Origin: an uncultured Actinomycetes bacterium | GTDB taxonomy: Bacteria > Actinomycetota > Acidimicrobiia > Acidimicrobiales > JACCXE01 | Direction: 5' to 3' | DNA: 64,000 bases | Assembly: GCA_963718605.1 (NCBI GenBank) | Contig: OY970363.1 | Span: 192,505 to 256,504, forward strand | Shown here: in pieces, positions 5,233 through 62,975 of the stretch | Layout of the letters: each line of letters opens with the position of its first letter | Numbering within the stretch: position 1 is the stretch's first letter | The notes under the pieces: model-generated | The model's input: only the letters and a program-made list of their open reading frames with translations | What the model was told of the DNA's origin: nothing | The model's database searches: none | Program-made: the position numbers and the translations under genes

Positions 5233-5234
5233 CG

Positions 5235-41369: not shown

Positions 41370-41419
41370 GGGCCGCGTGCGCTTCAACTAGATCCGATTG
41401 TGTTTCCTGGTTCCCCAGC

Positions 41420-41539
41420 TTGGGAAGCTGAATTCAGTGGTCGTCCACGGACGCCCGCGGACGTTTGCGCAGGTCACGCCGGGTGACGTGCTTCGGCGGA
41501 TGAGGGCGAATCCCGGGGGATGAGCCATAAATGCGCCAT
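41420..41539. repeat. 120-bp imperfect direct repeat, copy 1 (partner 62856-62975; offset 21436 bp)
   Basis: My ungapped hand alignment gives 89/120 identical positions (74%). It ends in atgagccat-aa-atgcgccat. It lies in the gap between the ABC exporter stop and the RES gene stop. Confidence 0.8.
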
Positions 41540-41749
41540 CGAGTTAGTCCGTGCACTTGACGACTCCTTCCAGAGGCACGGGACTCGCCTCAGCTTCCCG
41601 ACAACGCAGCAGCCGGTTGTCAGCGGGCAGTCCTGAACTGTTGGGGCGGGTCTCCGGTCTCGGGACGATGGTCGCTACACGACATCTTCTGGCATTTTCA
41701 GCTTGCACGCGAACCGACGGCCAGCTCGCGAGCGATCGCCGCGGAAGTC

Positions 41750-42418
41750 TCACCGTCGGGACACTGAGACCCGGTACGGCGCGAGCCGCGTCCGCAGTTC
41801 ACGCCGTCCTCGGTTGGTGTCGAAGTCTGCGCTCGCGCCCGACGGAACTTGGGGGTCGTTCGAGGCGACGACCGCACCAACCGGGATCCGATCGCCGAAC
41901 AGAACCAGAGCAAGCAACGTCGGGTCTCGCTTACTTTGCCAGACGTATCCTTGCGCGGCTGGGGCGACGGACCTGATCCAGTGGCCCCAGTGACGCGATT
42001 GTGCGTAGTCACGCGGGTCGCACATGGTCAGCCACGTGTCCTGCGCGACTGCGCTGAGATCTAGCGCCGATCGAAGGGCGACCAACTCCAGGTCGTGCGT
42101 TACTGAAATCGAGCTGATCCGTCTGCCGGCAACCTTCGCTCGTGGTAGCAGGCGAAATCCCAAGTCGTCTGCGTCTAAGTCCCGCAGGAGAGTCTCCGCG
42201 ATCGCGACATCAACCGTCTGGCCGGCGTAAAGGAAGGGGTAGTCGTCGTCGTCAGTGCCATCAAAGCGTCCGCCGCCGTAGTACTTGTGGCTCGGTGTGG
42301 TGTTGAACGCGTCGCTCGCGAACCGTTTCTGATGAACTCGAAACAGGCTTGTCCCAGATAACAGAGTCGTTGTCCGCGCGACGCCGTTGAACGCCAACGG
42401 CGGTCGTGTGTTCGACAC
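41750..42418 (-). CDS. RES domain toxin (NAD+-targeting toxin family)
   Basis: 222 aa. The R/E/S triad context is GGGRFDG, VAIAETLLRD and YVWQSKRDP. GTG start lies 3 nt after the stop of the upstream DUF2384-like gene. Confidence 0.8.
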   Translation of the reverse strand: MSNTRPPLAFNGVARTTTLLSGTSLFRVHQKRFASDAFNTTPSHKYYGGGRFDGTDDDDYPFLYAGQTVDVAIAETLLRDLDADDLGFRLLPRAKVAGRRISSISVTHDLELVALRSALDLSAVAQDTWLTMCDPRDYAQSRHWGHWIRSVAPAAQGYVWQSKRDPTLLALVLFGDRIPVGAVVASNDPQVPSGASADFDTNRGRRELRTRLAPYRVSVSRR

Positions 42419-42421
42419 CGG

Positions 42422-43087
42422 TTACCAGCTGTCATTCGCGAGTTGGTCGACGGCAAACAAGAGTTCGTCGTCGCGGCCCGTGCCGAGGAGGTCAGCTGGC
42501 CTCGCCTTCGACAGCCACTGGTTTGGTGTGAGCCACCAACTCGCTGCACCTGCCGGGTCTTGGTAGCCGCCCAGCCGCTCGTGGAACCCTCGGACGATCT
42601 CGTGGATGGTGCCCGACTCGATCGACGAGAACATGAAGCGCGGCGTGCCGCCTTCCGCGTCGCTAATGAATGGTCGGGCCGTGATGCTCGGCGTTCCGTC
42701 CTGCGAGATGAAGAAAACGACTCCTTCGCGGCGAACCTGGGCTAGAGCCTCCTGCTCGACATAGTCCGCCACGGCACGCATCGTGACGTCAGGTTCGGCG
42801 AGCGCGACGAGAGAACGAACTACGCAGCGCTCGGCCAGGACCTGCGGTTCCAGGTGCAGACGGCGTTCCTCGAAGCGGGTGTCTGCGCTGCGAAGAACGA
42901 GCCACACTGCATGATCGGGTGGCAGGTCGGCCAGAAGTCGGGTTAAGACGGACTCAGCGAGCCCGTCCGAAGATGTCGGTTCTTCCCACTGGAGCCGCGC
43001 CAACGACGCGAGCGTTTGGACCGACAGCAACGGCTCTGTCTCTTCCCAGTCACGGTCGATCAGTTCGAGAGCATCGATAGTCGCCAT
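42422..43087 (-). CDS. RES-cognate antitoxin-like protein: unrecognised ~170-aa N-terminal region plus C-terminal DUF2384 (Xre/MbcA/ParS-type toxin-binding) domain
   Basis: The C-terminus WWLTPNQWLSKARPADLLGTGRDDELLFAVDQLANDSW matches the DUF2384 pattern. I could see no helix-turn-helix in the N-terminal part. ATG 43087 shares one base with the CHAT gene stop (TGATG). The 97-codon extension of ORF 42422..43378 lies inside the CHAT gene and was rejected. Confidence 0.65.
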   Translation of the reverse strand: MATIDALELIDRDWEETEPLLSVQTLASLARLQWEEPTSSDGLAESVLTRLLADLPPDHAVWLVLRSADTRFEERRLHLEPQVLAERCVVRSLVALAEPDVTMRAVADYVEQEALAQVRREGVVFFISQDGTPSITARPFISDAEGGTPRFMFSSIESGTIHEIVRGFHERLGGYQDPAGAASWWLTPNQWLSKARPADLLGTGRDDELLFAVDQLANDSW

Positions 43088-46000
43088 CAACCGGCAATGT
43101 AGACAACGCTCGACCAGTTGGCCGCGTGAGCGAACGGCCTGCGCCCCGTGTCTCGAAATTCCGGATCCAGTAGAAGCACACGGAGCTCTTGCCGAAGACG
43201 CGGCGGGATCCACGAGTCCAAGTCGTTCGCCGCGGCGAGGTCGAGGAAATCCGCGGCGCTGTATTCGCGAAGGGTCCGTTGGGCGTCGGCCAAGGCATCG
43301 GGTGCCTTCAGTCCAGCTACGAGGCGGTCGTAGAAGCGCGACATCAGCAGGCATGTGCCGGCGTCTTCGACGTCCCACAGTGTCGCTACGACGCTGCCTG
43401 CTCCGGCGGCAATCATCGTGTGCGCGAGACCGATCAGCTCATCCGCTCCCGCCTGATCAACCACCCCAGTGCTACAGCACGAGGCAACCACCATTGCCAG
43501 ATGCGGCATGGACGCCATGGCGAGGTCTTCGACGGTTACCCGCGTCTTGTCGCCGAGAATGAAGCGACTTGCGAACGGGTCGCCGGGGTCGTATCTGGCG
43601 TGACACGCGAGGTGTAGGTGCGTCGCTGTCGGGAGCTGCTCGAGCAACCAGCCCCGAAGACCGGCACCCTGGGGCGGCGTGACGACGCGTCCGGCGAATC
43701 GCTCGACGGCCACCAACTCGTCGGCTGCGAACCTCAGGTCGCCCGTCGGATTGACTATCGCCAAGGTGCGGTCTGGGTCGACGTTCCTTCGTGGGACAGC
43801 TGTGGCCGCCACGATGTACTGGGCGCTGGCGGCGACTTCAACCATGCCCGCGGACCCACCGAGAGCCGCAAGCGGAAGCCCAGACAAGGCTCCGCAGGCC
43901 ACGATCGCCACGCTGTCCACGGCTGCGTCGCGGAGAATGCGAGCCGCTTGGTTGAGGAGTCCGTCGCCTAGGACGTCCCAGGCCCGGTCCAGAGCCACCT
44001 CGACGTCTGCTCTCGATTGGGCCGTGTCAAGTGCAGCAAGCACCGAAGCGACGTCGCGTGACTTCACGAGTGCGGTCCACGCACCGGCTCCCTTTCCCGG
44101 AACCAGCACGACGGCATACGAGCCGAGTGAACACGTGCCGACGTACAGCATTGCCGTTCCAGCGCGGAGCCATCGTTGGACCGCTTCATCGACCTCGGTC
44201 GAGTCGTAGTCACCGACAGTTGTCCGCCGCCACCGTGCGCGTGAGCGTTCGATGGTGTGGATCACGCTTCGCGCATCGAGTCGATGCGCGTAGAGCAGCG
44301 CGAGCCGGTGATAGAGGTCACTCGCTGCAGCGACGTGGCCAAGGCGCGCGGCGAGCGTCGGAGCGCGGTCGATCACGTCGTCGGCATAGTCGCAGGCTGA
44401 GCGGAGAACCTCGACCGCAGCATCCCAGTTGCCACGCGACAGGTGCATCTGCGCAAGGTTGCCGCAGACGAGGTGGTGGAGGCGTGTAGGCGCTGAGTCC
44501 TCAAGCGCCGCCGCGCACTTACACAACAGCTCCTCCGCGCGATCGAGATCCGTATCTTCTCCTCGCCAAAACAACACTCCGGCCAGCGTCGTTGCCGCGA
44601 GTACGCGCGTCGCGTCGTCCGCTGCGAGATGGCGCGTCGAATCTACGGCGTCCTCCAGCCACTCCTCTGCGTCGGCGCATTGCGTCGCGCCGACGTTGGA
44701 CGTGACCCGGTGCAGCATCTCGAGGACAATCGCGCCGAGATTGACAAGCGCGCGCGTGCGCACGGGGTGGGTCGATTCGAGCTGGTCCAACTTCGGCCGC
44801 AAGGCATCAACCGCGTGGATTACAGCGTCGTCGTGCTCTGGCGAGAGGTCGAGCCGCGCACGGTCTGCGAGCGCTGAGACGAGGTTGCCTTCGAGCATTA
44901 TCGCGTCGGCTTGCGGGAGCGGATCCGACACGTCGAGACAGCGCGCGTAGTCGAAAAGCTCAAGCGCCTTCGCGACGTTCAGACTGGGATTACCGGCGAG
45001 CCGAGACCTCGACAACGCTGCCTGATTGACGATCGCCGAGATGCCCCGTGACGGCTCGTCCGGGAAATACAGCTGGCACAAATGAACGGCGTCATGAAGC
45101 AGCGACATCGCTGCCTCCGCAGCATCGGCGTCGGCGACTCGATCTGGTCGCAGTTCTGACAGCGCGAAGTTCACGGTGGCGTCGACAACGATCGGCAACT
45201 CGAGCCGGGCTGCGGTCCTTCGTACGTGATCGAGCATCGACCGCGCGTCGATAAACGCGTCCCCTGCGGTCATGTCGTCGAGAAGCCTCGCCGCCGTGTC
45301 GTTCATCGCCGTCAACGTCATCGGGTGAGCGTCGCCGAATTCGCGCGTCGCGAGCGCTATCAGTTCGCGACCGGAAGCGATGGCGGCGCGCAAGTCCGCC
45401 GGCGATCTCGAGGCTGCGGAACCAAGCGCAGTCAATTCGCGAAGCAGCGCCAGAGCTTCCTTCGCTGAGTCGGTCTCGGCATCGAACCCGAGTGCACGTA
45501 ACGAAGACTGGGCCGGACGACTCATGCGGGCCCGGACGACGTCGGCAGCAACCGGGTCGACCTGGGAGGCGGCGGTGAGAACACCGATCCGACGCACCAC
45601 CGGCTCCCACGACATCTGGGTGAGCTCAGGCTCGGACTCGATGACCCCCTCCGCGTCGGCATCGTCCGAAGCGACCAGTCTCCCGACAGCTGCCACTACG
45701 TCGGGCCACGGATGGTTCCAACGCATGGCCGCAACCCACTCGAGAACACGCGGGTCGTCGGCCCACTCCTGCCCGGCGGCGTCGACACCCGCGAGCTGGA
45801 AGCCCGAGTAACGGTCGGCCACGACGCCGACAAGCTCGGGCGACGTGTTCGCCACGGGGCCGGCGACGACGCCTGCGTCGTTGATCTGAGTTGCGAGCGC
45901 GTCCTCAAGGCGCGCCATCGTCTCGGAGTCAGCGGCCGACACGCAGAAGACGACCGGGATCGGATCTCCGGGGCGAAGGACTACGACGGGCCCGGGCACC

Positions 46001-46257
46001 GCCGCATCCTCGCCACAACTCGGGCAAGCAGCAACAGGAAAGGAAGCTCGCAGCGACTCCATCCGTTGCCGATCTCGCCAGTCCGACATCAGCGGCAGCA
46101 GATACGGAAAATTCGAGTCGCAGTGATCGCAGTGGACGATCAATTCGACATCCGTGGTGTCGAAGAGTTCGTCGCGATCGGTCGGACGGACGCCGGTACT
46201 CATTTCGCGATTGTCGCCGAGTCGCCAATGGACGCGTCGTTCAGAGAGTCGAACCAT
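43087..46257 (-). CDS. CHAT-domain (caspase-like) protease with N-terminal zinc-ribbon and helical TPR-like middle region
   Basis: 1056 aa. N-terminal HCDHCDS...ACPSCG (two CxxC pairs). A long all-helical middle region. C-terminal CHAT: LHLACHARYDP (catalytic His), AMVVASCCSTG (catalytic Cys), SVVATLWDV and the terminal HAANWSSVVYIAG. Confidence 0.8.
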   Translation of the reverse strand: MVRLSERRVHWRLGDNREMSTGVRPTDRDELFDTTDVELIVHCDHCDSNFPYLLPLMSDWRDRQRMESLRASFPVAACPSCGEDAAVPGPVVVLRPGDPIPVVFCVSAADSETMARLEDALATQINDAGVVAGPVANTSPELVGVVADRYSGFQLAGVDAAGQEWADDPRVLEWVAAMRWNHPWPDVVAAVGRLVASDDADAEGVIESEPELTQMSWEPVVRRIGVLTAASQVDPVAADVVRARMSRPAQSSLRALGFDAETDSAKEALALLRELTALGSAASRSPADLRAAIASGRELIALATREFGDAHPMTLTAMNDTAARLLDDMTAGDAFIDARSMLDHVRRTAARLELPIVVDATVNFALSELRPDRVADADAAEAAMSLLHDAVHLCQLYFPDEPSRGISAIVNQAALSRSRLAGNPSLNVAKALELFDYARCLDVSDPLPQADAIMLEGNLVSALADRARLDLSPEHDDAVIHAVDALRPKLDQLESTHPVRTRALVNLGAIVLEMLHRVTSNVGATQCADAEEWLEDAVDSTRHLAADDATRVLAATTLAGVLFWRGEDTDLDRAEELLCKCAAALEDSAPTRLHHLVCGNLAQMHLSRGNWDAAVEVLRSACDYADDVIDRAPTLAARLGHVAAASDLYHRLALLYAHRLDARSVIHTIERSRARWRRTTVGDYDSTEVDEAVQRWLRAGTAMLYVGTCSLGSYAVVLVPGKGAGAWTALVKSRDVASVLAALDTAQSRADVEVALDRAWDVLGDGLLNQAARILRDAAVDSVAIVACGALSGLPLAALGGSAGMVEVAASAQYIVAATAVPRRNVDPDRTLAIVNPTGDLRFAADELVAVERFAGRVVTPPQGAGLRGWLLEQLPTATHLHLACHARYDPGDPFASRFILGDKTRVTVEDLAMASMPHLAMVVASCCSTGVVDQAGADELIGLAHTMIAAGAGSVVATLWDVEDAGTCLLMSRFYDRLVAGLKAPDALADAQRTLREYSAADFLDLAAANDLDSWIPPRLRQELRVLLLDPEFRDTGRRPFAHAANWSSVVYIAG

Positions 46258-46303
46258 CGATTCGGCCTAGCCGAGCTTCGCCTCCGCGAAGTGGGTCGAA
46301 CGG

Positions 46304-47632
46304 TTAGCGACCTAACCGCTCGTGTTGGTCCGGTTCGCCGCGTAACGCCCACCGCGGCAGCGGCAGTTTCGTGTTGTCTGCTTCGAACCTCGTGAGCCCG
46401 AGGTCGTACATCAGGACGGTTAGCCAGTTCTGAACGATGGGTTCAATCGCGTCGACCGAGCTCCCCGCTGCCTCGCCTTGGAAGCCGTATTCCGATACGG
46501 CGTTCGCGATCACGTCTTGCGTGTATTTGTGCGCGTCGGCCAGCAAGCTGTTCAGCGCCTGAGCCGCGACGATCGAGACGGTTACTCCGTCGCGTGAGCG
46601 CGGTTCGGCCATCTCGAGAGCGGTCGCGCACGCAGCGAGCACGCGAGTTGCCGCGATGAGGCCTCCGAGCAACAGATCGCGAAGGTCGGCGATGATCAGC
46701 TTGAGGCGGGGGGTGTCGGCCGGCGGGTCGATTGGTTCGATCATCAGTTGGGTTGAGACTGAGAGCTCGCGGTGGTCGAGCACGACGCGGGACATTGCGC
46801 GGATTCGTGCGCCCAGCACGTTGTCGGTTTTCTGGGCTGCCGGTGACGTGGCGATGAGGCTTAGTTCGGTGGCTGACTGACGGAACACGTCCCAGTACGG
46901 CCCAAGGTCGCGGTATCGCCGTTGCGGCTCGAGAACCTTGTCGGGCAAGGGACTCGTATTGAGCGCTTCCTTCGCTGCTTCGGCGACCGCCGTGCCTAGC
47001 CATGGGTGGGTTAGGACGCGCACTGGTAGGTAGCTCGCTGCGCGGAAGCGGAGGTCGATCACCTCGTCGGCTTCCGGCTGGAGGCCCAAAGCCTGCTGCT
47101 TTAGCTGGGTCCACGAGTATGTGGGTGTTTGTGTGCCGGCACTGTGTCCGGCCTTGCCGCGTTCGACGAGGTTGATGATGTCTTCGCGCCGCGCGTGAGC
47201 GTTGTGGCCGGGCATCCGAATAAGGACGCGGCCGTTGACGGCAACAGGATGCGTGACGGCGTCTGCGTCGACGCGGAGAAGCAGGAGTATTCGGTCACCA
47301 ATGTCGGTGATGCGGACCGGAATGAATTCGGGCATCGCGTCTGTCGTGAGCACGCTGCGGAGCTGCTGTGCGATCGCGTCGTGATCGGCCGCCGGTATTC
47401 CGGGAAACCGATTCTCCGGGGGGCCTGTCTCGTCTGCGCCGACAATGACGATGCCGCCGTCGGCGTTGGCGAACGCGACAATGGAGTCAACGAGATGTTT
47501 CGACGCTGACTTCTTGAGTTCAAGAACGCGCGACTCGCTGAGGACTCCGAGGCGTTCGACGTTGGCGACATCCGCGACTAAGTCGTCGAACGAGATCTCG
47601 CTCGCCGCGCACCGGTAGATGTCGATCGCCAT
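46304..47632 (-). CDS. Schlafen/AlbA_2-domain protein with ~280-aa C-terminal region of unknown function
   Basis: ESRVLELKKSASKHLVDSIVAFANADGGIVIVGADETG...PVAVNGRVLIRMPGHNAHA fits the AlbA_2 (Schlafen core, putative nucleic-acid-binding) domain. ATG 47632; ORF-track start 47638 is a TTG two codons upstream. It sits 46 nt upstream of the CHAT gene on the same strand. Confidence 0.65.
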   Translation of the reverse strand: MAIDIYRCAASEISFDDLVADVANVERLGVLSESRVLELKKSASKHLVDSIVAFANADGGIVIVGADETGPPENRFPGIPAADHDAIAQQLRSVLTTDAMPEFIPVRITDIGDRILLLLRVDADAVTHPVAVNGRVLIRMPGHNAHARREDIINLVERGKAGHSAGTQTPTYSWTQLKQQALGLQPEADEVIDLRFRAASYLPVRVLTHPWLGTAVAEAAKEALNTSPLPDKVLEPQRRYRDLGPYWDVFRQSATELSLIATSPAAQKTDNVLGARIRAMSRVVLDHRELSVSTQLMIEPIDPPADTPRLKLIIADLRDLLLGGLIAATRVLAACATALEMAEPRSRDGVTVSIVAAQALNSLLADAHKYTQDVIANAVSEYGFQGEAAGSSVDAIEPIVQNWLTVLMYDLGLTRFEADNTKLPLPRWALRGEPDQHERLGR

Positions 47633-47936
47633 GATCAATCGTTAGCCGCTGCGTGGCGACGCCGCTGCGTGTTGCGACCTTCGATCTGTCGGCGCCGTCA
47701 GGATGCGGCATGCCTGCAGGTTTGCCCGGCCCGACCCGGGTACCGCTCGAATCGTCAAGTGGCACACCGCCGTTGCGGCAACGCGACTCGTCCGCGACGC
47801 ACACGCCGCGCTACTCGAAGGAGCGTTCACCGCCAACGAACGGGCTGCTCTCGACGCTGTCGCGGGGCGAAACGAGACGTAGAAGCGGCTCAAGCTCCTG
47901 CGTCACCACGCCCGCCGAAGTCAGTAGGTTCGAGTG

Positions 47937-49910
47937 ATGGGATCGGGAGCCAGTGATGCACCCGAACTTGTGGATGGGATGCCTCGAGAGGTCGTCGCCC
48001 AGATTCTGAAGGATCTCGACCGGGGACCGAAGATCATCGACTGCCTGCGGACCGCTGGTCATCTCATCGCAGAGGCGCGGGAGGACACGACGGGTCTTCG
48101 GCTGGTCGAGTCCGCCGCATACAACCTGCGCGAGGCGCTCGACGCGCTCGTCGTTGGTCAAGAAGCCGGCGAAAGCGCGCTGGACAAGTTCAGGGACGCG
48201 TACCGGCGGTACGGCGTCGCGTCGGCCGAACCGGGGGCCGACGAGGCGGCGGTGCTGAGGGCTCTCGCCACAGAGGTCGGCCGAGTGGCGACTGATACCA
48301 GCCACCAGGATTTCCGCACGCGGCAGTTCCTTGGCTGGCTGAAGTCCCGGACGGGGATTGCTCCCTTGCCGGGAGACGATGACCCGAGTGCGCAACTCGC
48401 GCGTCTTCGCAGACGAGTCAACGGTGCGCTACACGACAGCGGCACTCTCGCGAACGTCGCCGGGTTTTACGACGAAGGGACGTCGTGGTTCACCCGGCTG
48501 TTTACGCCTCCGGATGACCGAGTGCGACGGATCATCGAGCTCGCGCGCAACCCATTTGGCGAGGCGGCACAGGTGCAGGTTCTGCGCACCGAGATCGCTT
48601 ACAACGCTCACCACCTAGGCCGGTTTCTCGCCGAGGCGCGGGACCCGGCCTGGCTCGATGCATTGTTCGACGACGGGCTCATTCATCCGCCGCGCGACGA
48701 CGAACCTTGGCCGGTGGCGTCGTTGGTTGGCGGCAACGGTGGCATCGCTGCTTCTGACACGGTGGCGCTGCTGAGTCGGTTGCGGGCGTCGACGGCTGCT
48801 AGCGACGCGGCATCACTGTTGAGGTTGGACCGCAACCTCGTCCAGCTCGGCCTTCGATTGGGCGAGCCATCTCACGCGTTGGTCATCGATGTCGTGGCGA
48901 AGCACGGGAGTGACCACTGGATTCAACGACTCGCCGTGAACGTCGCCAGAGAGGCCGACCCCGCGTCGCCGGTCGTCGTCGCCGTGGCGGACGCCGTCAT
49001 CAACAGTCGCTCGACGTCGGACGCCGGATACCAGACCCGGACGATGACCGATCTGCTCATCGGCGGGATTAATACTGACAACGCGCGGGAGCGGTTCGCG
49101 TTGTTGGCGTCGAAGCTTGAACGATTGGCGACGCACGCCAGCCTTCGCGTGTCGCCACCGGACATCGCCGCCCTCAACACTCCGGACGCCGATGGAGATC
49201 TTCGCGACGAGCCGCTTATCGTGACCGAACGCTTCGTGAACGCCATTGGGCGGTGGCGGGAGCTGGGGTTGCCGACATCGGAGCTCGTGGCATTGGTTGA
49301 GCCGATTGGCGGGCAGCTCGGCGAGCGCATCCTGTGCAGAGTTTTGGTCGGCGCCGAGGACGTGACCAGGAAGTCAAAGCTCGCTCACCTGGCTCTGCGA
49401 TTGCACTCACCAACGGCTTCGGGCGACGACCGTGACCTGCTCGCAGACTTAGGACAGTTAACCGACGTCGAGATCGCGGAACTTGCAATCGCGTTCGGTG
49501 CGCCGTCCGAGGCACCGGAGTCCGATGGAAACGGAATGGTGACCCTGCCCGCCGATTGGGCTCGGGCCTGGCGCTGGTCGATGCTGCTTCCCCCGGCCGT
49601 GCTGGACTCGTGGACAGCCGCGATCGAGGCCGTTATCGGGCGACATGGCCCCCCCGATCCCGAAGCGTTCAGCGCGTCGGCTTCCGAGGCATTTCTCGGT
49701 GCCGTCCAATCCGCCGCACACTTCAGAGGAGCTCTCCGCGGTCTCTCCAATAGATGCTGCCGAATTGGTGGCGGCGTGGCGTCCCACACCCGACATGGGT
49801 CTGTGGGGCTCAAGCCTCTACGAGCTCGCCGTCGAAATCGAGAGCGCGATCAGTGGAGACATCGACGCATGGGTGGCGGACCCGGTCGCGATCGTCACGG
49901 CGCTGCGTGA
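47937..49910 (+). CDS. large hypothetical helical protein, N-terminal segment (probably the first part of a frameshifted ~1075-aa gene)
   Basis: Coding-looking sequence up to about ...GPPDPEAFSASASEAFLGAVQS (~49710). The last ~65 codons (RGALRGLSNRCCRIGGGVASHTRH...RRRNRERDQWRHRR) look like out-of-frame translation. I recognised no NTPase or nuclease motifs. Confidence 0.55.
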   Translation: MGSGASDAPELVDGMPREVVAQILKDLDRGPKIIDCLRTAGHLIAEAREDTTGLRLVESAAYNLREALDALVVGQEAGESALDKFRDAYRRYGVASAEPGADEAAVLRALATEVGRVATDTSHQDFRTRQFLGWLKSRTGIAPLPGDDDPSAQLARLRRRVNGALHDSGTLANVAGFYDEGTSWFTRLFTPPDDRVRRIIELARNPFGEAAQVQVLRTEIAYNAHHLGRFLAEARDPAWLDALFDDGLIHPPRDDEPWPVASLVGGNGGIAASDTVALLSRLRASTAASDAASLLRLDRNLVQLGLRLGEPSHALVIDVVAKHGSDHWIQRLAVNVAREADPASPVVVAVADAVINSRSTSDAGYQTRTMTDLLIGGINTDNARERFALLASKLERLATHASLRVSPPDIAALNTPDADGDLRDEPLIVTERFVNAIGRWRELGLPTSELVALVEPIGGQLGERILCRVLVGAEDVTRKSKLAHLALRLHSPTASGDDRDLLADLGQLTDVEIAELAIAFGAPSEAPESDGNGMVTLPADWARAWRWSMLLPPAVLDSWTAAIEAVIGRHGPPDPEAFSASASEAFLGAVQSAAHFRGALRGLSNRCCRIGGGVASHTRHGSVGLKPLRARRRNRERDQWRHRRMGGGPGRDRHGAA

Positions 49911-51509: not shown

Positions 51510-51524
51510 CAGGTTGCGAACTGT

Positions 51525-55169: not shown

Positions 55170-55182
55170 GTTGGAGTTCCTC

Positions 55183-57000
55183 ATGGAAGGCGTTCGATCC
55201 GTGTACACACTCAGCGACGAGCAACAGGCGGCGGTCGACTGCGATGACGCTGCAATCGTCGTTGTCGCGAGTGCAGGAAGCGGCAAAACGGAAGTCGTCG
55301 CGCGTCGGGTGGAACGGCTGCTAACGAGTTCGGCCGGGGATTCGTCGCGAGTCTTGGCTCTCTCGTACACGATCAAAGCGGCAGACGAGTTGCGCGACCG
55401 ATTCCGCGAACGGTTGGGCGACCTTCACCGTCGTGTCGACACGGACACCGTGCACGGATTTGCTCACTCGCTTCTGCGACAAGGCGGAACGCGCATCGGA
55501 CTGCCCGTCGAGCCGGAAGTTCTAAGTCGGGACGCGGACCGGGTCGAGCTTCTGGGTCGTTGGCTCGCCGCAGAGGGCGCGAGGGTGCCCGACGATCTCG
55601 CCGCGGCGCTGGGGGCGCTTGACCTCAGTCGGGCGCGCCTACAAGAGGCGCCGTTGGGGGTCGAGTGGGATGCGGCGTTGCGCGATGCAGGAGCAGTCGA
55701 CTACCCGGCGATGCTCGAACGTGCGAACGAGCTACTCGGCCTCGCATCGACCCGCCGCCAGCTCTCGCGCCTGTACAGCCACGTGATCGTTGACGAGGCG
55801 CAGAACCTCACTCCTGCGCAGTATGCATTGCTCACAGCTGTCATCGGCCTTCCCGGCGACGACCAAATTCCAGCGATGATTGTCGGCGATGACAAACAAT
55901 CGATTGTCAGTTTCGCTGGCGCTGATCCAGCGCTGATCCGGCAGTTCGCCAAGGACTACCGAGCAACGCGATTCGAACTAACGAAGAATTTCCGTTCCGC
56001 GGCAGCCATCGCGACCGTTGGGCAATCCGTCGCGAAAGCGCTCGGTCAGCGCGGCGAGGTCGAGCCGGCCGACAGCTTCGCTGCGCCTGGCGTTGTACTT
56101 ACCTACGAAGCCGACGATGAGACTGACGAAGCAGCACGAGTTACGGCGTGGATCGTTGATCTCCTCCGAGACGGACTGCCAAAGGATGTTGTCGCGGCCG
56201 GTGAGTCAACGACCGTTCGACCTGAGGACATCGCGGTTCTTGCGCGATCCGCCGCCGCCCTTCGCTACACACGGGCGGCTCTTGAGGCCGCTGGGATCCA
56301 GGCCGCGTCCGCCAGCGCTCCTGAGGATTGGCTTGCTACGACGGCGGCCGACGTGATTGTTGAACTGATCGCGCTCCAAAGTTCCGCAGACCACAAGTCA
56401 ACCCACTGGCAGCTCGCGCGATTGCTGGACGCGGACGAGGACGACGTACGTGACCCCGCAGCGCTGAAACAGACGCTTGCAGGTAACGCCGATGAGGGCC
56501 TTCGTGCGATCGCGAGTCTCTGCGATGCGGAGCAGCCGTCGGACCTCGTGGCAGCGCTCGCCTCCATCGAACTGTCGGCGGATACCACCTCGCCCCTGTC
56601 GGTCGCGTGGCACTCCGACTGCGCTCTCATCGGCGAGTCATGGCTTGCATTCACGGCCCAGGCCTCGGCAGCGGAGTGGACCTGGGGAAACTTCGGCCTG
56701 TATCTCTCACGAATACAGCGCGGCACCACGGGCGGGTCTGGCGTCAAACTCATGACGATTCACAAAGCCCAGGGCCAAGAGTTCCCGGTTGTCGCTTTGA
56801 TCGGTCTGAACGACGGCCAGCTTCCTGACTTCCGTGCAAACGACGAAGCGAGCCAACTCGCCGAGTTACGAACGTTCTACGTCGCGGTCAGCCGCGCTAG
56901 CCGGGCGCTCTTGGTCACTCGGCCACGGTTCCGAGACACGCGCTTCGGCCCACGGGGCTCCCGGGAGTCCGCGTATTGGGAGTTCCTCGTCGCGAGCTGA
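55183..57000 (+). CDS. gajB: UvrD/PcrA-like superfamily 1 helicase, GajB-like
   Basis: VVASAGSGKTEV (motif I), HVIVDEAQNL (motif II), KNFRS and MTIHKAQGQEFPVV. Start set to ATG 55183, 13 nt after the gajA stop with GGAG upstream. The ORF-track start 55066 lies inside gajA. Confidence 0.75.
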   Translation: MEGVRSVYTLSDEQQAAVDCDDAAIVVVASAGSGKTEVVARRVERLLTSSAGDSSRVLALSYTIKAADELRDRFRERLGDLHRRVDTDTVHGFAHSLLRQGGTRIGLPVEPEVLSRDADRVELLGRWLAAEGARVPDDLAAALGALDLSRARLQEAPLGVEWDAALRDAGAVDYPAMLERANELLGLASTRRQLSRLYSHVIVDEAQNLTPAQYALLTAVIGLPGDDQIPAMIVGDDKQSIVSFAGADPALIRQFAKDYRATRFELTKNFRSAAAIATVGQSVAKALGQRGEVEPADSFAAPGVVLTYEADDETDEAARVTAWIVDLLRDGLPKDVVAAGESTTVRPEDIAVLARSAAALRYTRAALEAAGIQAASASAPEDWLATTAADVIVELIALQSSADHKSTHWQLARLLDADEDDVRDPAALKQTLAGNADEGLRAIASLCDAEQPSDLVAALASIELSADTTSPLSVAWHSDCALIGESWLAFTAQASAAEWTWGNFGLYLSRIQRGTTGGSGVKLMTIHKAQGQEFPVVALIGLNDGQLPDFRANDEASQLAELRTFYVAVSRASRALLVTRPRFRDTRFGPRGSRESAYWEFLVAS

Positions 57001-57190
57001 CTGCATCTTCGTCGAGGAGCAGAGCGACAAGGACCGATCCGCCCTAGACCACGTAGGCGTGACCCACCCAGTTCAATGTGGCCCGCCCGCCGTCCGACGA
57101 GTTGCGCGGAGTACGGAATCTCGCGGCACTCAGAATCAGATTTCAACGAGGGTTAAAGCGGTCCCACACACTTAGCCGGAGGCAGGACCC

Positions 57191-57388
57191 ATGAGCATCT
57201 CGGACCTGATCAACAAAACCCTCAAGAAAGCGAATGTCGAATCGATACTCGGTGATCTCGGTGTGATGCAGATCGCGGGGGCGATTTCCAGCGGCGCCTC
57301 TGAGGCCGAAATCTTGGCCATCGAGGCTGGGCTGGTGGAAGCGACCGACAACACGCCTCAGGCCACGGATCTGGTCGAAAAGCCGTGA
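57191..57388 (+). CDS. small hypothetical protein (65 aa)
   Basis: GGAGG at 57178-57182, 8 nt before the ATG. Its stop overlaps the GTG of the CHAP gene (GTGA). No recognisable domain. Confidence 0.5.
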   Translation: MSISDLINKTLKKANVESILGDLGVMQIAGAISSGASEAEILAIEAGLVEATDNTPQATDLVEKP

Positions 57389-58131
57389 CAACGGTCGCGG
57401 AAGCGCTGGCTCAGGCGGCGCACTGGGACGGCTACGTGGAGGAGCCGCCGGGGTCAAACAACACAGAGTTCGGCCGTTGGTACGGCGTGAACCCCGACTA
57501 TTGGTGTGCAATGTATGTATCGCGCGTGTTCTTCGATGCTGGGCTTCCGTTGCCGGCGTCGACGTCTAAGGGCTTCGCGTACACCCCACAGGGCGCCAAA
57601 TGGTTTATGGACAACCAACGATTCGTTGGGCCGTCAGCGCCGATCGCTCCTGGGATGGTGGTCTTCTACTACTACCCGAGCAAGAAGCGGATCGCTCACG
57701 TCGGCATCGTTGCCGACGTGATTGACAGTCAGCACTTTCACGCGTGGGAGGGCAACACCGATGCGGCCGGAGGTCGAACGGGCGGGCGCGTGATCAAGCA
57801 GACACGATCTCGTTCGACAGTCGGCGCGCACGGCGGGTTCGGCATACCGGCGCTGTCCGACTTGGTGTATCCGCCAGCGGATCAACAGGAGCCGACGCCT
57901 GCGACGGCTCCGCCGTACCCAGGCCGGGTGTTGAAGCTCACAAACCCGATGATGCGTGGTGAGGACGTCAAAAACTGGCAAGGCCGCATGGCCCAGATTG
58001 GATACAGGATCTCTAGTGACGGTGTCTACGGACGCGGTTCGGAAGGCGTCTGCAAGGAATTCCAACGCATGAAGGGACTCGGCGCAGACGGCCAGGTCGG
58101 ACCGAAGACGTGGAAAGCGAGTTGGGCGTAG
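57385..58131 (+). CDS. CHAP-domain peptidoglycan hydrolase with C-terminal peptidoglycan-binding (PG_binding_1) domain, endolysin-like
   Basis: GSNNTEFGRWYGVNPDYWCAMYVS (catalytic Cys context), IAHVGIVADV and HAWEGNT (His/polar residues of CHAP). C-terminal DGVYGRGSEGVCKEFQRMKGLGADGQVGPKTW is the PG-binding repeat. No signal peptide seen. Confidence 0.75.
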   Translation: MTTVAEALAQAAHWDGYVEEPPGSNNTEFGRWYGVNPDYWCAMYVSRVFFDAGLPLPASTSKGFAYTPQGAKWFMDNQRFVGPSAPIAPGMVVFYYYPSKKRIAHVGIVADVIDSQHFHAWEGNTDAAGGRTGGRVIKQTRSRSTVGAHGGFGIPALSDLVYPPADQQEPTPATAPPYPGRVLKLTNPMMRGEDVKNWQGRMAQIGYRISSDGVYGRGSEGVCKEFQRMKGLGADGQVGPKTWKASWA

Positions 58132-58196
58132 CAGGCGAGGCGGTCACGACGAGCACCTCCTCCCACTGGTTCACTCCGTAGAAATCGAGGGCGAAA

Positions 58197-58658
58197 ATGT
58201 TGGTTGTCGCAGCGACGAAGCTCTTCCAAAACTTCAACGTCCATCACTTCGTGGTGACCGTCTGGCAGCACCATCCGCTCGTCCGAAGTTCGATCGGTGC
58301 GCTCGTACTCGGGGGGATCGGAGGCGGAGCGTATGTGACGGCCGTGCTCCTCGGCTTCCTTGGGTCAGACACTCTCGAACAATTCCGCGCTCGCTTTACC
58401 GTCTTCACTCCACCGCCTCAACCCGCCCGGCAAGTCTTGTCCCGAGCGCGCCTCGGCGTCTTCATCTTCTTCGGCGCTGCGGTTGCGTTCGTATTCCAAC
58501 TCGCGCAGGGCAAAACGTTCGCTCCGATTCAGGCGTTTGTGCTCGGGGCCACGTGGACCACGGTCGTCGCTCAGATGATATCGAATAGTGCGCAGGGAGA
58601 CATGAAGAAGAATCAAGAACTAGCCCAGGCCATCCGAGGGTTAGATACGGCCGGCTAA
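58197..58658 (+). CDS. small membrane protein, about three predicted TM helices (holin-like position)
   Basis: Hydrophobic stretches SIGALVLGGIGGGAYVTAVLLGFLG, LGVFIFFGAAVAFVFQLA and FAPIQAFVLGATWTTVVAQMI. It lies directly after the CHAP gene. Confidence 0.5.
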   Translation: MLVVAATKLFQNFNVHHFVVTVWQHHPLVRSSIGALVLGGIGGGAYVTAVLLGFLGSDTLEQFRARFTVFTPPPQPARQVLSRARLGVFIFFGAAVAFVFQLAQGKTFAPIQAFVLGATWTTVVAQMISNSAQGDMKKNQELAQAIRGLDTAG

Positions 58659-58670
58659 CGAGGAGACAAC

Positions 58671-59081
58671 ATGGCAGCCTTCGACAACCTTTCACGCGTA
58701 CAGATTGGCCAGCTCATAGATCACGAGACCGACAAGGCGGTCACGGTCTCACCTAGCTCGACGCTCAAGGCCGCGGCAGCGAAGTTGAAAGACACTCCCT
58801 CGCGGAGCATCGTCGTCGTCGACGAGACGAAAAAGCTCGTCGGAATCCTCACGCAGAGCGACTTCACCAAGGCGGTCGAGGACGGGCTGTCGCCGGACAC
58901 GAAAGTGTCAACACTGCTCAAGGAGAAGGACATGCCGACGACGATCGACAAGTCCGTCACGCTGTCGGACTTCGTCGGGACCGTCGGACCCAAGTCCACG
59001 GTGATCATCCACGACGCTGATGCCACGTACGTCGTGAAGCGCTCAGTCCTCGCAGATCGCGTGGAGCGGAATCTTCTCTAG
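58671..59081 (+). CDS. CBS-pair domain protein
   Basis: 136 aa with AGGAG 6 nt upstream. VTVSPSSTLKAAAAKLKDTPSRSIVVVDETKKLVGILTQSDF plus a second half-repeat (TIDKSVTLSDF...VIIHDADATYVVKRSVL) fit tandem CBS motifs. Confidence 0.7.
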   Translation: MAAFDNLSRVQIGQLIDHETDKAVTVSPSSTLKAAAAKLKDTPSRSIVVVDETKKLVGILTQSDFTKAVEDGLSPDTKVSTLLKEKDMPTTIDKSVTLSDFVGTVGPKSTVIIHDADATYVVKRSVLADRVERNLL

Positions 59082-59168
59082 TCGCGAAGTGCCGTGTCGG
59101 TGGCGGCCATCAAGCCAGCATCTTCACGTGCCGGCCAGTCCTCCAAGTCGACGACCACGTGTTCACGT

Positions 59169-60131
59169 ATGACGCCGGCGCTGAGGCACGAGCTGGGAAT
59201 CATTGGCGGAGGCGTGGCCGTGCAAATGGCGCGGCCCGCGCTCGCGGCGTACAGCCGCGTCGCGATTCACCACCTGGGCGGAAATTCCTTCGAATACCCC
59301 GAGTTCGACTTCGTCGCCGAGGTCGGCGAATTGCTCGACCCTCGTCGTGTACAGGCGATCTATATCGCCACCCCCGTGCACTTACACGTCGACTTCATCA
59401 AGCAAGCGATACGCGCGGGGCTCCCGGTGCTCGTGGAGAAACCTCTCGGCATCGACGCTGACGACGTCGGGCGCCTAGGCAGCGCAGACACCTCTCGTGT
59501 CGCCGTCGCGTTTCGGAAGCGATACTCAGACCTCGCGGCTGCGCTGCGCGCCGCCCGGAACAACGGGTACGGTCCGTTCTCTCTCAAGATGACATGGTTC
59601 GCGCCCCACCCAGGGGTAGACCACTGGAAGGCAGCACCCAGCCGAACCGGAGGCGGCGTTTGCTTGGACCTGGCCTCACACGCGTTCGACCTCGTCGAGT
59701 TCTGCTTGGGACGTGTAACCGCGATCAGAGTCGTCGACTATCGCGTGAGACGCGATACGGAGGCCGACGAGTACGTCCAGGTGGTCGCGGACGTCGCGGA
59801 TGGATCACAGGTCCGACTTGAACTCGGCTGGGCAACAGGCACGCCACTGGAAATGGTGACCGTTGCGAGTCCGTCTTCCCACTTCGTCTGGGTCAAGGAA
59901 CCCGCTTCAACTGAGAGCGTGCTCGTCACCGCGAGTCGCGGTGAGGTGCAGCGAGCGACCTGCCACCGCAGCGACGAGTACGCGCGCATGTTCCGCGACT
60001 TCGACGCGTTCGCGCACGGCGGCGGCCACGAGCTCGCTACCTGGCAAGACGGCGTCCGCAACCTCGGTTTGATTACCCAAGTGCTGACGGCAATCTACTC
60101 CTCCGACGATCGGAACGAGACCGCGACGTGA
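59169..60131 (+). CDS. Gfo/Idh/MocA family oxidoreductase
   Basis: HELGIIGGGVAVQMARPAL (Rossmann fold), VQAIYIATPVHLHVDFIKQAIRAGLPVLVEKPLG (EKP motif). Start set to ATG 59169; GTG 59094 is possible. The stop overlaps the next gene (GTGA). Confidence 0.8.
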   Translation: MTPALRHELGIIGGGVAVQMARPALAAYSRVAIHHLGGNSFEYPEFDFVAEVGELLDPRRVQAIYIATPVHLHVDFIKQAIRAGLPVLVEKPLGIDADDVGRLGSADTSRVAVAFRKRYSDLAAALRAARNNGYGPFSLKMTWFAPHPGVDHWKAAPSRTGGGVCLDLASHAFDLVEFCLGRVTAIRVVDYRVRRDTEADEYVQVVADVADGSQVRLELGWATGTPLEMVTVASPSSHFVWVKEPASTESVLVTASRGEVQRATCHRSDEYARMFRDFDAFAHGGGHELATWQDGVRNLGLITQVLTAIYSSDDRNETAT

Positions 60132-61282
60132 CCGATTGGCGATGGCCGGATCCACACCCGACCGACGATCGAGAGGCTGGCTACCTGCGTCAAGCACTTG
60201 GCAACCCAGATTGGTCCCACGCCGACCTTTGCAACGAGTTCGAACAGCGATTCGCGCAGTACCTCGGAGTTCGACATGCACTGCTCGTTCCGAGCGGCAC
60301 TGCAGCAATCCACATGACCCTCGTCGCCGCGGGCATCGAACCGGGACAGGAAGTAATCCTGCCCGGCATCACCTGGCCATCAGTCGTGTACGCGATTATC
60401 AAGGCGGGCGGAGTCCCCCGGACCGTGGACATCTCCGCTGGCAGCCTTTGCCTCACCGCAGAGGCCGTCGAAGAGGCCATCACCGAGCGAACGTTCGCCG
60501 TCCTGGCAACCCACCTCTTCGGGTCGCAGTGCGATATGGAGGCCCTCTGCGAAGTAGCAGCGCGACATCGGGTCCTCGTCATTGAGGACGCAGCACAGGC
60601 GGTCGGTGCCGTCCAACGCGGGAGGTCGTGCGGGACCTGGGGCTTGGCCGGAGCATTCAGCTTGAACGACAAGAAGGTCCTTGCGTGCGGAGAGGGCGGC
60701 GTCATCGTGACCGACGACAACGAGCTCATGGATGAGTTGCGTATTCACCAGCTAATCCTTCCGGAGCGAGCCAACGTCCCAGCGACCGTTCCGGGCACAT
60801 ACAAGATCAGCGAATTCCAGGCTGCTGTAGGACTGGGGCAGCTTGAGAAGCTCCCCGTGAGACTGGAAATAATGCACCGCAACGCCGATCGGTTGGCCGA
60901 AGTGTTGGCGACCCGGACCGCACTCATCTCTCGCCAGGCCGTTCCGCCGGGCGTCACAACTCACACCCTCTATAACTTCTGCTTCAACGTCGAGGGACCT
61001 CGGACACCACTATTCAGGCATCGGTTGTCGGAAGAGCTCGGGCTCCGGGTGTCGCTCCCCTACCGACCTTTGCGAGAGATCACAGACTTTCATCCCTCGT
61101 CCCAGCCGCTGGATCAGGCGAGCCGTCAGAACCTCGATCTCCGGCATCCGAACTGTGAAGACGCGTATCGTGAACGAACGCTGCGCCTTCCCCACTACGT
61201 CCTTCGGAGCAACCTCGCGACTATTGATCGCTTGGCTCACACGATTGTGGACCTCTTTGACGCATCGATCGTGGCTCGATGA
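60128..61282 (+). CDS. DegT/DnrJ/EryC1/StrS family PLP-dependent (sugar) aminotransferase
   Basis: ALLVPSGTAAIHMTL, VLVIEDAAQAVGA and FSLNDKKVLACGEGGVIVTDD (PLP-lysine region) are hallmark motifs of this family. Confidence 0.85.
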   Translation: MTDWRWPDPHPTDDREAGYLRQALGNPDWSHADLCNEFEQRFAQYLGVRHALLVPSGTAAIHMTLVAAGIEPGQEVILPGITWPSVVYAIIKAGGVPRTVDISAGSLCLTAEAVEEAITERTFAVLATHLFGSQCDMEALCEVAARHRVLVIEDAAQAVGAVQRGRSCGTWGLAGAFSLNDKKVLACGEGGVIVTDDNELMDELRIHQLILPERANVPATVPGTYKISEFQAAVGLGQLEKLPVRLEIMHRNADRLAEVLATRTALISRQAVPPGVTTHTLYNFCFNVEGPRTPLFRHRLSEELGLRVSLPYRPLREITDFHPSSQPLDQASRQNLDLRHPNCEDAYRERTLRLPHYVLRSNLATIDRLAHTIVDLFDASIVAR

Positions 61283-62034
61283 GCGACCGGAGACTGGCGA
61301 CCATCGTTGCCTTGGTGGTGGTCGTGGCCCTAACCGCGGTCTCCTGCATCCTCATCGTGCTCAACGGCGACGGGGCCGCAGAGTTCGAACTGTTCGGACA
61401 GCGTTTCTCGTCAACCAATATCGGGCTCGGCGTGCTGTTCCTTGCAGTGGTCGTTCTGGTCATCACGCTTCGGCGATCCGACGGGACGGACCCAGCCACG
61501 GCAACGGCCAACGAGGTCCTAGCCGCGAGCGCTTCTGGCGAGCAGATCTCGTGGGACGAATTCATTAGCGGTGTCCAAGCACTCGTGCTCAAGCTGACAG
61601 CGGCGGATGGCTTCCGTCCAGATCTCGTCGTCGGGATCTGCGGCGGCGGACTGATGGTCGCAGACTTGGTCGCGAAACGACTCGGCCACATCCCGTGCCT
61701 TGCGATCTGGCCCGATCGCCACTCACACAAGCCCGGGTCAGCGTTCGGCGGGCTCGCGTCCCGAATTAACCAGATCGATCTCGATGGCGTCTTACGGGAC
61801 CTCGCGGCTAATCGCGTCCTCGTCATCGACGACGTCATTTACAGCGGCAAGACCCTAAGGGAGGGAATGGAGTTCCTGGTCGAGCGAAGCAGTCTCATTC
61901 GCGAAGGTGCGGTCGAGATCCAGTGCGCCGCCCTCTTTGCTCTCACTTCTTCGGCGTTCAAAGCAGACTTCACGATCTACCAGGACTCGGTGCGTCGGAA
62001 GATGATGCCTTCGTCAGACCGGCTGCGGCGGTAG
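61279..62034 (+). CDS. membrane-anchored phosphoribosyltransferase-domain protein
   Basis: Two N-terminal hydrophobic helices (LATIVALVVVVALTAVSCILIVL; IGLGVLFLAVVVLVITL). Then ISWDEFISGV...PDLVVGICGGGLMVADL and RVLVIDDVIYSGKTL (PRPP-binding loop). ATG overlaps the upstream stop (ATGA). Confidence 0.65.
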   Translation: MSDRRLATIVALVVVVALTAVSCILIVLNGDGAAEFELFGQRFSSTNIGLGVLFLAVVVLVITLRRSDGTDPATATANEVLAASASGEQISWDEFISGVQALVLKLTAADGFRPDLVVGICGGGLMVADLVAKRLGHIPCLAIWPDRHSHKPGSAFGGLASRINQIDLDGVLRDLAANRVLVIDDVIYSGKTLREGMEFLVERSSLIREGAVEIQCAALFALTSSAFKADFTIYQDSVRRKMMPSSDRLRR

Positions 62035-62718
62035 GCCCGACTCGAACGCGCGATCAATCGCCGTTCGAAGGGCGTCGACGGAAGCAAAGACCTCGGATGC
62101 GCCAGCGCCCGCTAAAGCTTTCGCCCGTGACTCATCAACAGGCGCACCGCCCGTGAAGCCCCATACCGGAACACCAACTTCCCTCGCTGCCCGAACACCT
62201 TCAGCACTGTCTTCTACCGCAAGGCAATCCACGCTCGACACTCCCAAGCGTGACAAAGCCACGGCGTACGTCGTCGTCTTGATCGGAGCACCAACCTCAG
62301 TCCCGAAGATTCGGTTCGCGGGCACCACGTCCGAGGCGCCGACGAGATCCAGCTTGCGTGCGACGGACTCCTGATCGCTCGAAGACACGATCGCCACGTT
62401 GTGGCGATATTGCTCAAGAAGCTCCGCGATTCCCTCGATGAGACTCAGATCGGTTTCATACCGATCCCACCGAGCCGAATGAAGTCTGGCCTTCAAATCC
62501 GCCGACGGGATGGCAACCTTCTCTCGATCAAGGCGTTCCTCCAACAAAGCCAGGTGACGTCCTTCAGAAAGTCCCAGCGTGATCTCCCGGTAGTCGGCAG
62601 GTGGCAGGACCACGCCGAGTGTCGATAAGACGGCGAGCTCTGCCTGCTCAGCGAGGGTTTCGGAGTTAACGAGCACTCCATCACAGTCAAGGAGCAAGAA
62701 CCGAGGTCGAAGATGCAC
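62014..62718 (-). CDS. HAD-superfamily hydrolase (beta-phosphoglucomutase-like subfamily)
   Basis: FLLLDCDGVLVNSE (DxDG motif I), VAIVSSS, and the C-terminal AVEDSAEGVRAAREVG (motif IV). Start set to GTG 62718. The 90-codon upstream extension of ORF 62014..62988 is Arg-rich and covers the repeat element. The 3' end overlaps the convergent PRTase gene by 21 nt. Confidence 0.7.
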   Translation of the reverse strand: MHLRPRFLLLDCDGVLVNSETLAEQAELAVLSTLGVVLPPADYREITLGLSEGRHLALLEERLDREKVAIPSADLKARLHSARWDRYETDLSLIEGIAELLEQYRHNVAIVSSSDQESVARKLDLVGASDVVPANRIFGTEVGAPIKTTTYAVALSRLGVSSVDCLAVEDSAEGVRAAREVGVPVWGFTGGAPVDESRAKALAGAGASEVFASVDALRTAIDRAFESGLPPQPV

Positions 62719-62855
62719 CGTTTCGATCCTCCCATAGGGTGGTGCGAGCGAGACCGAATCGGACAGCCCTACCCGTTTCCGGATTGCGATGAACTTTCGA
62801 AACCGTCCAACCGCGCTAAGCGCTCGCTCGCGGGCAGCCCGACGAGTGCTTCCGA

Positions 62856-62975
62856 TTGGGAACCTGAATTTGGCGGATGTCGGCGCGCACCCGCGAACGT
62901 TTGAGCAGCTCCGACAGGGTGAGGGACCTCGGCGGACGGGAACGAACGTCCGGGGATGCGCCATAAATGCGCCAT
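62856..62975. repeat. 120-bp imperfect direct repeat, copy 2 (partner 41420-41539)
   Basis: It ends in a perfect tandem 9-mer, atgcgccat-aa-atgcgccat (62956-62975). It lies between the MazG-like gene stop and the HAD gene start on the minus strand. Confidence 0.8.

Follow-up and report, generated by a model that had tools for sequence, protein, structure and literature searches.

Integrase arm-type and Xis sites in lambda, L5 and pSAM2 are phased direct repeats beside the recombination core, and tRNA-gene islands reportedly fall into sublocation classes, set out by Williams in 2002. Islands of this type are delimited by the regenerated tDNA and a displaced fragment; attP sites centred on the anticodon are common, and islands also occur in tandem arrays (PMC4383910). 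Decay to integrase-less cis-mobilisable elements (CIMEs) followed by accretion has been described, as have tandems of integrative conjugative (ICE) and integrative mobilisable (IME) elements (PMC5704250). The same review credits ICESt1-type CIMEs and tandem accretion to Pavlovic 2004 and Bellanger 2011 (PMC5704250).

The locus analysed here lies in a 64-kb stretch of an uncultured actinobacterial genome (the window), in which two imperfect direct repeats of 120 bp (copy 1 and copy 2; Table 1) bracket a block of largely accessory genes. The repeats are quite likely attachment-site (att) arms of tyrosine-integrase elements that target the anticodon loop of tRNA-Gly(CCC), brought together in the window by tandem accretion. 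To our knowledge, this arm sequence family and its host lineage, metagenome-assembled genomes (MAGs) of Acidimicrobiia type, are undescribed.

An arm family joined to tRNA fragments

The initial annotation had described a gapless repeat pair with 89 of 120 positions identical, each copy ending in a tandem 9-mer with 11-bp spacing, and both descriptions hold. Ungapped alignment gives 89/120 identity (74%), and the similarity is significant by blastn (E = 8.5e-17, searched against the window); the runner-up ungapped match for either copy, on both strands of the whole window, reaches 52–58/120. The edges of the similarity are sharp on the left and on the right. Profile searches with nhmmer found no third copy in the window, and ATGNGCCATNNATGNGCCAT at up to 3 mismatches matches just two window sites, which are the two repeat copies.

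The repeats belong to a family that spans many genomes. A one-genome-per-species scan with ATGNGCCATAAATGNGCCAT as query returned 35 loci, about half of them in Acidimicrobiia or other Actinomycetota MAGs, and a metagenome scan with the tandem 9-mer added 38 further loci (L-numbers denote loci from other genomes or metagenomes compared here). Related copies number about 45, from Acidimicrobiia/Actinomycetota MAGs and soil metagenomes; the actinobacterial matches carry the full element, beyond the 9-mers alone, and each genome or contig holds one or two copies. The element has no PLSDB match (blastn) that would point to a plasmid origin, and the flanks of the window share nothing with those of the related loci except generic ABC ATPase similarity (tblastx).

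The context of the element in these relatives is what identifies it. At about 24 unique loci, an element of roughly 100–112 nt directly adjoins a displaced 3' tRNA fragment, with the join in the anticodon loop. The reverse-complement T-loop motif stands at a fixed distance of −121 to −135 from the 9-mers in 20 of the 28 unique arms with CGRAY boxes, and in 4 others. Reverse-complemented, the sequence that precedes the element in relatives (TGGAGCGGGYGACGRGAATCGAACYCGCGTTCTCAGCTTGGGAA) reads as the 3' part of tRNA-Gly(CCC), with the anticodon loop at one limit and the CCA end at the other; TTGGGAA, with which the window repeat opens, is therefore this tRNA's anticodon loop (minus strand, TTCCCAA). 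One and the same arm is joined at this loop to fragments of Gly(CCC), Gly(TCC), Ala(TGC), Pro(CGG) and Thr(CGT) tRNAs (anticodon loops read by eye), and fragments from at least five tRNA species rule out the arm as the chromosomal flank of a single tRNA gene.

The tRNA sequences adjoining the arm are fragments, not genes: ARAGORN calls no tRNA at the fragment sites, apart from two defective calls at L052 (4162–4237, 76 nt) and L001 (2189–2267, 79 nt). Both calls take arm sequence as the 5' tRNA half, and a real tRNA that includes the arm was rejected on account of poor D arms and 2 acceptor mismatches. The CGRAC repeats probably gave rise to both calls by chance; the arm sequence in them could conceivably be a vestigial 5' half. 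Arms of the closest subfamily have GCGGGCG or GCGGGTG about 27 nt upstream of the anticodon stem, resembling the 5' strand of the tRNA-Gly acceptor. A conserved 'SGRRESNSRSQLGK' peptide upstream in relatives was also considered and proved to be translated tRNA.

The anatomy of the arm is regular. Across 27 unique arms, the starts of CGRAC boxes cluster at −84/−74/−64 (or −72/−62 in a second length class) and at −33/−23/−13, counted from the 9-mers; CGGAT stands at −3, and the phase of the boxes is exactly 10 bp. Overall, two or three CGRAY boxes from −84/−82 to −62 and three or four at −33/−23/−13/−3 form two blocks with a CAGGTCA motif between them, and the distal end holds two ATGYGCCAT 9-mers 11 bp apart. 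The 9-mers are invariant throughout the family, in part owing to the search pattern that found it. Both window copies conform to the family box phasing. By their pattern, the CGRAY boxes and 9-mers would fit binding sites for recombination proteins. A coding remnant was rejected when three frames of both copies were translated: amino acid identity of about 45–50% is the expectation from 74% neutral nucleotide identity, and copy 1 has a stop in one frame.

Arrays of the 9-mer also occur without CGRAC boxes. L025/L026, L032, L020, L014, L029, L064 and L050 carry 3–5 copies of (A)ATGNGCCAT or GTGCCATG in tandem arrays of 10–11 bp, both outside Actinomycetota (Armatimonadota and others) and at some actinobacterial loci, and at L010 and L024 the 9-mer arrays adjoin the 3' end of a tRNA. 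As a type of binding site, this array may be more widespread than the full arm.

The far ends of the elements are seen in some of the relatives. At L005, L008 and L027 the 9-mer side of the arm leads to an intact tRNA-Gly(CCC) (1.1, 2.8 and 3.0 kb away, respectively); fragment and intact gene are co-oriented and form a perfect direct repeat of 42–47 nt, a classic hallmark of site-specific integration into a tDNA. The position of the intact gene sets an orientation rule, by which island DNA lies to the right of each window copy. The three islets hold no integrase (L008 is the same as L043 and L048); L008 carries an HTH_17 gene of excisionase type, and L027 a RES toxin paired with a putative antitoxin. 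Each could be a decayed element or, alternatively, a satellite-like islet that is mobilised in trans.

Integrases appear next to the motif elsewhere. L002 and L016 share the order integrase open reading frame (ORF), CGAAC boxes and 9-mers, about 73 nt, and lastly, on the opposite strand, an intact tRNA (Gly-CCC for L002, Ala-CGC for L016). Full Phage_integrase/SAM_3 proteins stand beside the motif in L022 and L029, and L029 has in addition an AAA_30 helicase and a tRNA-Gly(CCC). The motif co-occurs with integrases that have N-terminal SAM-like domains, and the cargo of the relatives is that of mobile elements: RES toxin, HTH_17, AAA_30 helicase and DnaA/DnaB fragments. In L035, with the 9-mers on the plus strand, ORFs at 4609–5658 and 6406–7056 in the island interior beside the arm encode a DnaA truncated to its N-terminal and ATPase domains (the DNA-binding domain is absent) and DnaB_C, which may be the remains of a replicative element; a (GCGAGT)n microsatellite immediately follows the 9-mers there.

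Weighing a tandem origin for the window

The predicted att-arm identity of the window repeats draws mainly on their homology to these relatives, and two further observations concern how the copies came to lie together. After alignment, copy 1 is 88% identical to L035 and 85% to L052, which are both from other organisms, and copy 2 is 82% identical to each; copy 1 and copy 2 are 74% identical to one another. Since each copy is nearer to arms of other organisms than to its partner, separate acquisitions are indicated, not local duplication. Moreover, the copies are of the same junction type and in the same orientation, which is impossible for the two ends of one element and points to two stacked elements.

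The core remnants differ in completeness. At copy 1 the stem-loop matches the intact tRNA-Gly(CCC) genes of L002 and L029 at 16 of 16 positions. Copy 2 keeps the loop and the arm-side half of the stem, with 11 of 12 positions matching; the far half and the remaining tRNA are gone. A further tRNA-sense stretch of 10 nt, TCAGCTTCCC, lies at 41590–41599 on the plus strand, 50 nt right of copy 1 and in inverse orientation to the core remnant, probably by chance (blastn E about 3).

A mechanism consistent with these data can be outlined. Integration would regenerate the tRNA at one end, and at the opposite end the displaced 3' tRNA fragment would be joined to element DNA, which is the arm. The CGRAY boxes and 9-mers would array the arm-binding domains of the integrase, together with a directionality factor (an Xis-like HTH_17 or ribbon-helix-helix (RHH) protein), on one face of the DNA, and the arrayed proteins would lead to assembly of the recombination complex. 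Copy 1, with its core loop intact and the tRNA remainder decayed, would be the outer border beside the ABC exporter. The older element would have decayed to the integrase-less island at 41.5–62.8 kb, with its RES, CHAT, Gabija and lysin genes and a sugar/nucleotide module. Copy 2 would then be the junction of a second, independently acquired element, which would start at 62,976 and extend rightwards; beyond coordinate 64,000 one would expect to meet the intact tRNA-Gly(CCC) and any integrase.

Among the readings offered by the initial annotation was a pair of degenerate att-like junctions left by an old insertion into the 5' region of the HAD gene. In kind this appears correct, as the repeats are homologous to arms adjoining displaced tRNA fragments; its target, its polarity and its assumption of a single element need revision. 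The target would be tRNA-Gly(CCC), whose 16-nt anticodon stem-loop copy 1 holds, and not the HAD 5' region; and the copies, with the same end type and orientation, would not be the left and right ends of one insertion.

Several results weigh against the tandem att-arm account. Within the 64-kb window, ARAGORN finds no intact tRNA, tblastn with four family integrases returns noise only, and there is no integrase-side (P'-type) motif block, so that the tandem model rests on sequence beyond the window. No match to the Phage_integrase Pfam family was found among the window ORFs tested. The window's own link to a tRNA would come from 16 nt in copy 1, 12 nt in copy 2 and the arm homology; similarity to the T-arm and acceptor left of the copies is undetectable (p 0.42 for copy 1, p 0.25 for copy 2). 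The nearest homologs of the ABC exporter are 52–56% identical, have no tRNA nearby and afford no empty-site comparison. GC content within the bracket is 0.61–0.66 and not distinct from the flanks, so the compositional contrast for which the initial annotation had suggested looking is absent. Finally, in one subfamily the 9-mers extend into the start of a small RHH gene and could act as an operator instead. The tandem model is well motivated but incomplete.

That subfamily leads to an alternative we regard as unlikely, in which the conserved part is the promoter or operator of the element's first gene and the 9-mers are the operator of an RHH or HTH regulator, not recombination sites. In L023, L027, L028 and L030 a conserved ORF of about 50 aa starts at a GTG inside the second 9-mer; it shows 45–50% identity between subfamilies and a weak RHH_1 match (E 0.005). 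Tandem repeats spaced at about one helical turn are the typical binding sites of RHH proteins, and an HTH_17 gene follows the arm in L008. However, conservation of the 9-mers is just as high at loci without a following gene (the window, L035, L052 and L069), and in L002 and L016 the motif block separates the integrase stop codon from the intact tRNA. By eye, neither strand of the 9-mers contains a TANNNT promoter hexamer. Operator and recombination roles are not mutually exclusive.

Little credence attaches to a single 21.4-kb element inserted in the HAD 5' region, with the repeats as its attL and attR. The repeats are indeed direct and bracket accessory genes, the TTGGGAA loop where a crossover would occur is common to both, and the copy 2 core remnant would act as the inner island's left site even under tandem accretion. 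Yet attL and attR have only the core in common, not 105 nt of one and the same arm; relatives have the arm at the fragment end only and an intact tRNA at the other; the better tRNA remnant is in copy 1, beside the ABC exporter rather than HAD; and each copy has a closer affinity to other organisms' copies than to its partner.

A structured small RNA or cis-regulatory leader, for example of HAD, is very improbable. As the initial annotation noted, copy 2 lies about 140 nt upstream of the HAD start, which is true of the corrected start (see below), and copy 1 contains a perfect GTCAC...GTGAC hairpin. The Rfam search gave no match at the gathering threshold or at E<=1, except a chance CRISPR-DR match (E 0.66), and the RNAalifold consensus of 29 arms shows trivial 9-mer pairing only; the consensus energy of the closest subfamily equals that of column-shuffled controls (z −0.5 to −0.7). 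Copy 1, correctly called an orphan in the initial annotation, has no downstream gene on either strand, and homologs of the HAD module lack the element, which leaves the suggestion of a HAD leader, operator or small RNA without support. Conservation in the form of direct repeats phased at 10 bp is a signature at the DNA level and counts against RNA. Equally hard to credit is a generic dispersed repeat (REP- or MITE-like) or local duplication: a repeat family was rightly suspected in so far as copies occur across many genomes, but each genome or contig has one or two (two in the window), always in the same att context with the tRNA fragment fixed in position and orientation, no terminal inverted repeats are present, and the window copies are not mutual nearest relatives.

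Beyond the att-arm reading itself, a broader proposal is tentative and, on balance, doubtful. The arm might be a portable, self-sufficient recombination cassette, retargeted to at least five tRNA genes by swapping a core of about 45 nt. Integrase-less islets, from 1–3 kb toxin-antitoxin loci to the 21-kb Gabija/RES/CHAT island, might be excised and moved in trans by any related integrase and make up a satellite-like defence pool in Acidimicrobiia.

Genes of the island and its flanks

The coordinates of all features are collected in Table 1. The island segment contains no integrase or transfer genes within 41.5–62.8 kb (Pfam, tblastn). Its gene labels in the initial annotation largely stand: the RES, CHAT, Gabija, HAD and ABC exporter assignments are recovered by Pfam or PADLOC, and the lysis-like label corresponds to a CHAP/PG-binding hydrolase. 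The 'NERD-like' gene, by contrast, is a Schlafen/AlbA_2 gene. The description of the content as accessory and defence-related is broadly right, except that the right third (58.7–62.7 kb) is a metabolic module of CBS, oxidoreductase, DegT, PRTase and HAD genes. GajA and GajB are adjacent, as in a Gabija defence system. Neither Pfam nor PADLOC gave a match for the three long ORFs that separate Gabija from the Schlafen-like gene, and these are candidate defence or mobile-element genes.

Table 1. Features of the 64-kb window in coordinate order. Genes were assigned with Pfam and defence genes with PADLOC; box positions in brackets are relative to the 9-mers.
Feature	Position	Strand	Remarks
NRPS cluster	6472-33513	-	ORFs of 5957, 2120 and 910 aa; Condensation/AMP-binding/PP-binding
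ABC exporter pair	37670..41369	+	Pfam; flank outside islands
Copy 1, putative att core remnant	41416..41431	-	Complete tRNA-Gly(CCC) anticodon stem-loop, positions 26-41
Arm copy 1	41420..41539	-	Putative island-internal att arm, P-arm type; tRNA sense = minus strand; island DNA to right
Copy 1 CGRAY boxes	41448, 41458, 41497, 41507 (span 41448..41511)	+	(-72, -62, -23, -13); CAGGTCA at 41470
Tandem 9-mers, copy 1	41520..41539	+	ATGAGCCAT-AA-ATGCGCCAT; distal arm end
Island segment E1 (putative)	41540..62855		~21.3 kb, no integrase
RES	41750-42418	-	Pfam
Unknown ORF	42422-43378	-	
CHAT	43087-46257	-	Pfam
SLFN/AlbA_2 (Schlafen)	46304-47638	-	Pfam
Unknown ORFs	47934-53093	+, +, -	658 aa (+), 507 aa (+, overlaps first), 522 aa (-); between Schlafen-like gene and Gabija
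GajA	53367-55169	+	PADLOC E 5.8e-74; Pfam AAA_15/OLD TOPRIM
GajB	55066-57000	+	PADLOC E 3e-83; Pfam UvrD
CHAP/PG_binding hydrolase	57385-58131	+	Pfam
CBS	58671-59081	+	Pfam
GFO/IDH/MocA	59094-60131	+	Pfam
DegT	60128-61282	+	Pfam
PRTase	61279-62034	+	Pfam
HAD	62014-62718	-	Pfam; 234 aa
Copy 2, putative core remnant	62856..62867	-	TTCCCAA loop and arm-side stem half; 11/12 to tRNA-Gly(CCC) positions 26-37
Arm copy 2	62856..62975	-	Arm type and orientation as copy 1; putative second-element junction, DNA to right
Copy 2 CGRAY boxes	62874, 62894, 62933, 62943		(-82, -62, -23, -13)
Tandem 9-mers, copy 2	62956..62975	+	ATGCGCCAT-AA-ATGCGCCAT
Second island segment E2, inferred start	62976..64000		Runs off window
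PRA-PH/MazG-like gene	63037-63510	-	Pfam; within E2
139-aa ORF	63455-63874	-	Within E2

The start of the HAD gene in the source annotation is over-extended by 82 codons into the arm. There, protein P0121 has 316 aa (62014–62964, minus strand), starts at the ATG in the copy 2 9-mer and takes in the arm as an N-terminal extension; nearly all of the listed HAD homologs have 215–252 aa, and a GTG with a GGGAGG Shine-Dalgarno sequence gives 234 aa. The convergent DegT-PRTase/HAD module recurs in two unrelated metagenome contigs (L076 and L077), with HAD as the last gene, no MazG neighbour and no arm; in L076 an IS66 transposase lies upstream of it. Because the module recurs without MazG and the arm, copy 2 marks the edge of a module, which supports tandem accretion, and is no leader of HAD. 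The recurrence suggests a small mobile metabolic module, possibly for nucleotide or sugar modification.

On the left flank, the ABC exporter genes are kept as a pair in L074 and L075 and probably belong to the nonribosomal peptide synthetase (NRPS) cluster. The 910-aa NRPS protein has an additional sulfotransferase domain, and a Haem_oxygenas_2-like gene stands beside the cluster at 33553–34896 on the minus strand. Strong GC and AT skew at 7–29 kb is due to the NRPS module repeat of about 3.15 kb.

Comparison with described systems

The arm adds a new sequence family to a well-known class of feature and is of modest general interest; current understanding is not overturned, and the value lies in the practical delimitation of islands in Acidimicrobiia genomes. 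If the att-arm reading is right, the borders and polarity of a defence-gene island are fixed in an uncultured actinobacterial genome without the usual tRNA and integrase landmarks, and the island would be stacked from at least two acquisitions. The compact signature of tRNA fragment, phased CGRAY boxes and tandem ATGYGCCAT can find islands in Acidimicrobiia MAGs where standard finders would fail, and the HAD gene model becomes shorter at its start. The natural series of one arm with five tRNA cores is also useful for studying how integrases change target.

The family resembles the tRNA-gene islands that Hudson, Lau and Williams define with Islander in several respects: island DNA adjoins a displaced 3' tDNA fragment, the anticodon loop is the centre of the crossover (class A), an intact co-oriented tDNA lies at the far end (as in L005, L008 and L027), a tyrosine integrase stands beside the regenerated tRNA (as in L002 and L016), and tandem arrays of the kind proposed for the window occur (PMC4383910). 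The window itself differs in having no intact tDNA or integrase and almost fully decayed fragments, so Islander filters would not call it an island.

Like CIMEs, the window island has no integration or transfer genes, would retain att-derived sites and would form a tandem at one target, and the 1–3 kb integrase-less islets of relatives, with their perfect att repeats, are alike as well (PMC5704250). Mobilisation in cis, in contrast, is putative here. The outer site (copy 1) has a complete core stem-loop and the inner site (copy 2) the loop and one stem half; with half its core missing at copy 2, the 21-kb segment may have become unable to excise.

The attP arms of lambda, L5 and pSAM2 offer the closest parallel at the level of the site, and mycobacteriophage L5 likewise targets a tRNA-Gly. 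The motifs of the present arm, CGRAY at 10 bp and two ATGYGCCAT at 11 bp, are predicted sites unrelated in sequence to those of the three systems. The layout is alike: a non-coding stretch of 100-plus bp beside the core carries helically phased short direct repeats, similar motif blocks flank both sides of the core, and the integrase gene lies beside the P'-side arm. Helically phased short direct repeats beside the core, conserved among related elements, are what would be expected of an att arm, and the family has both properties.

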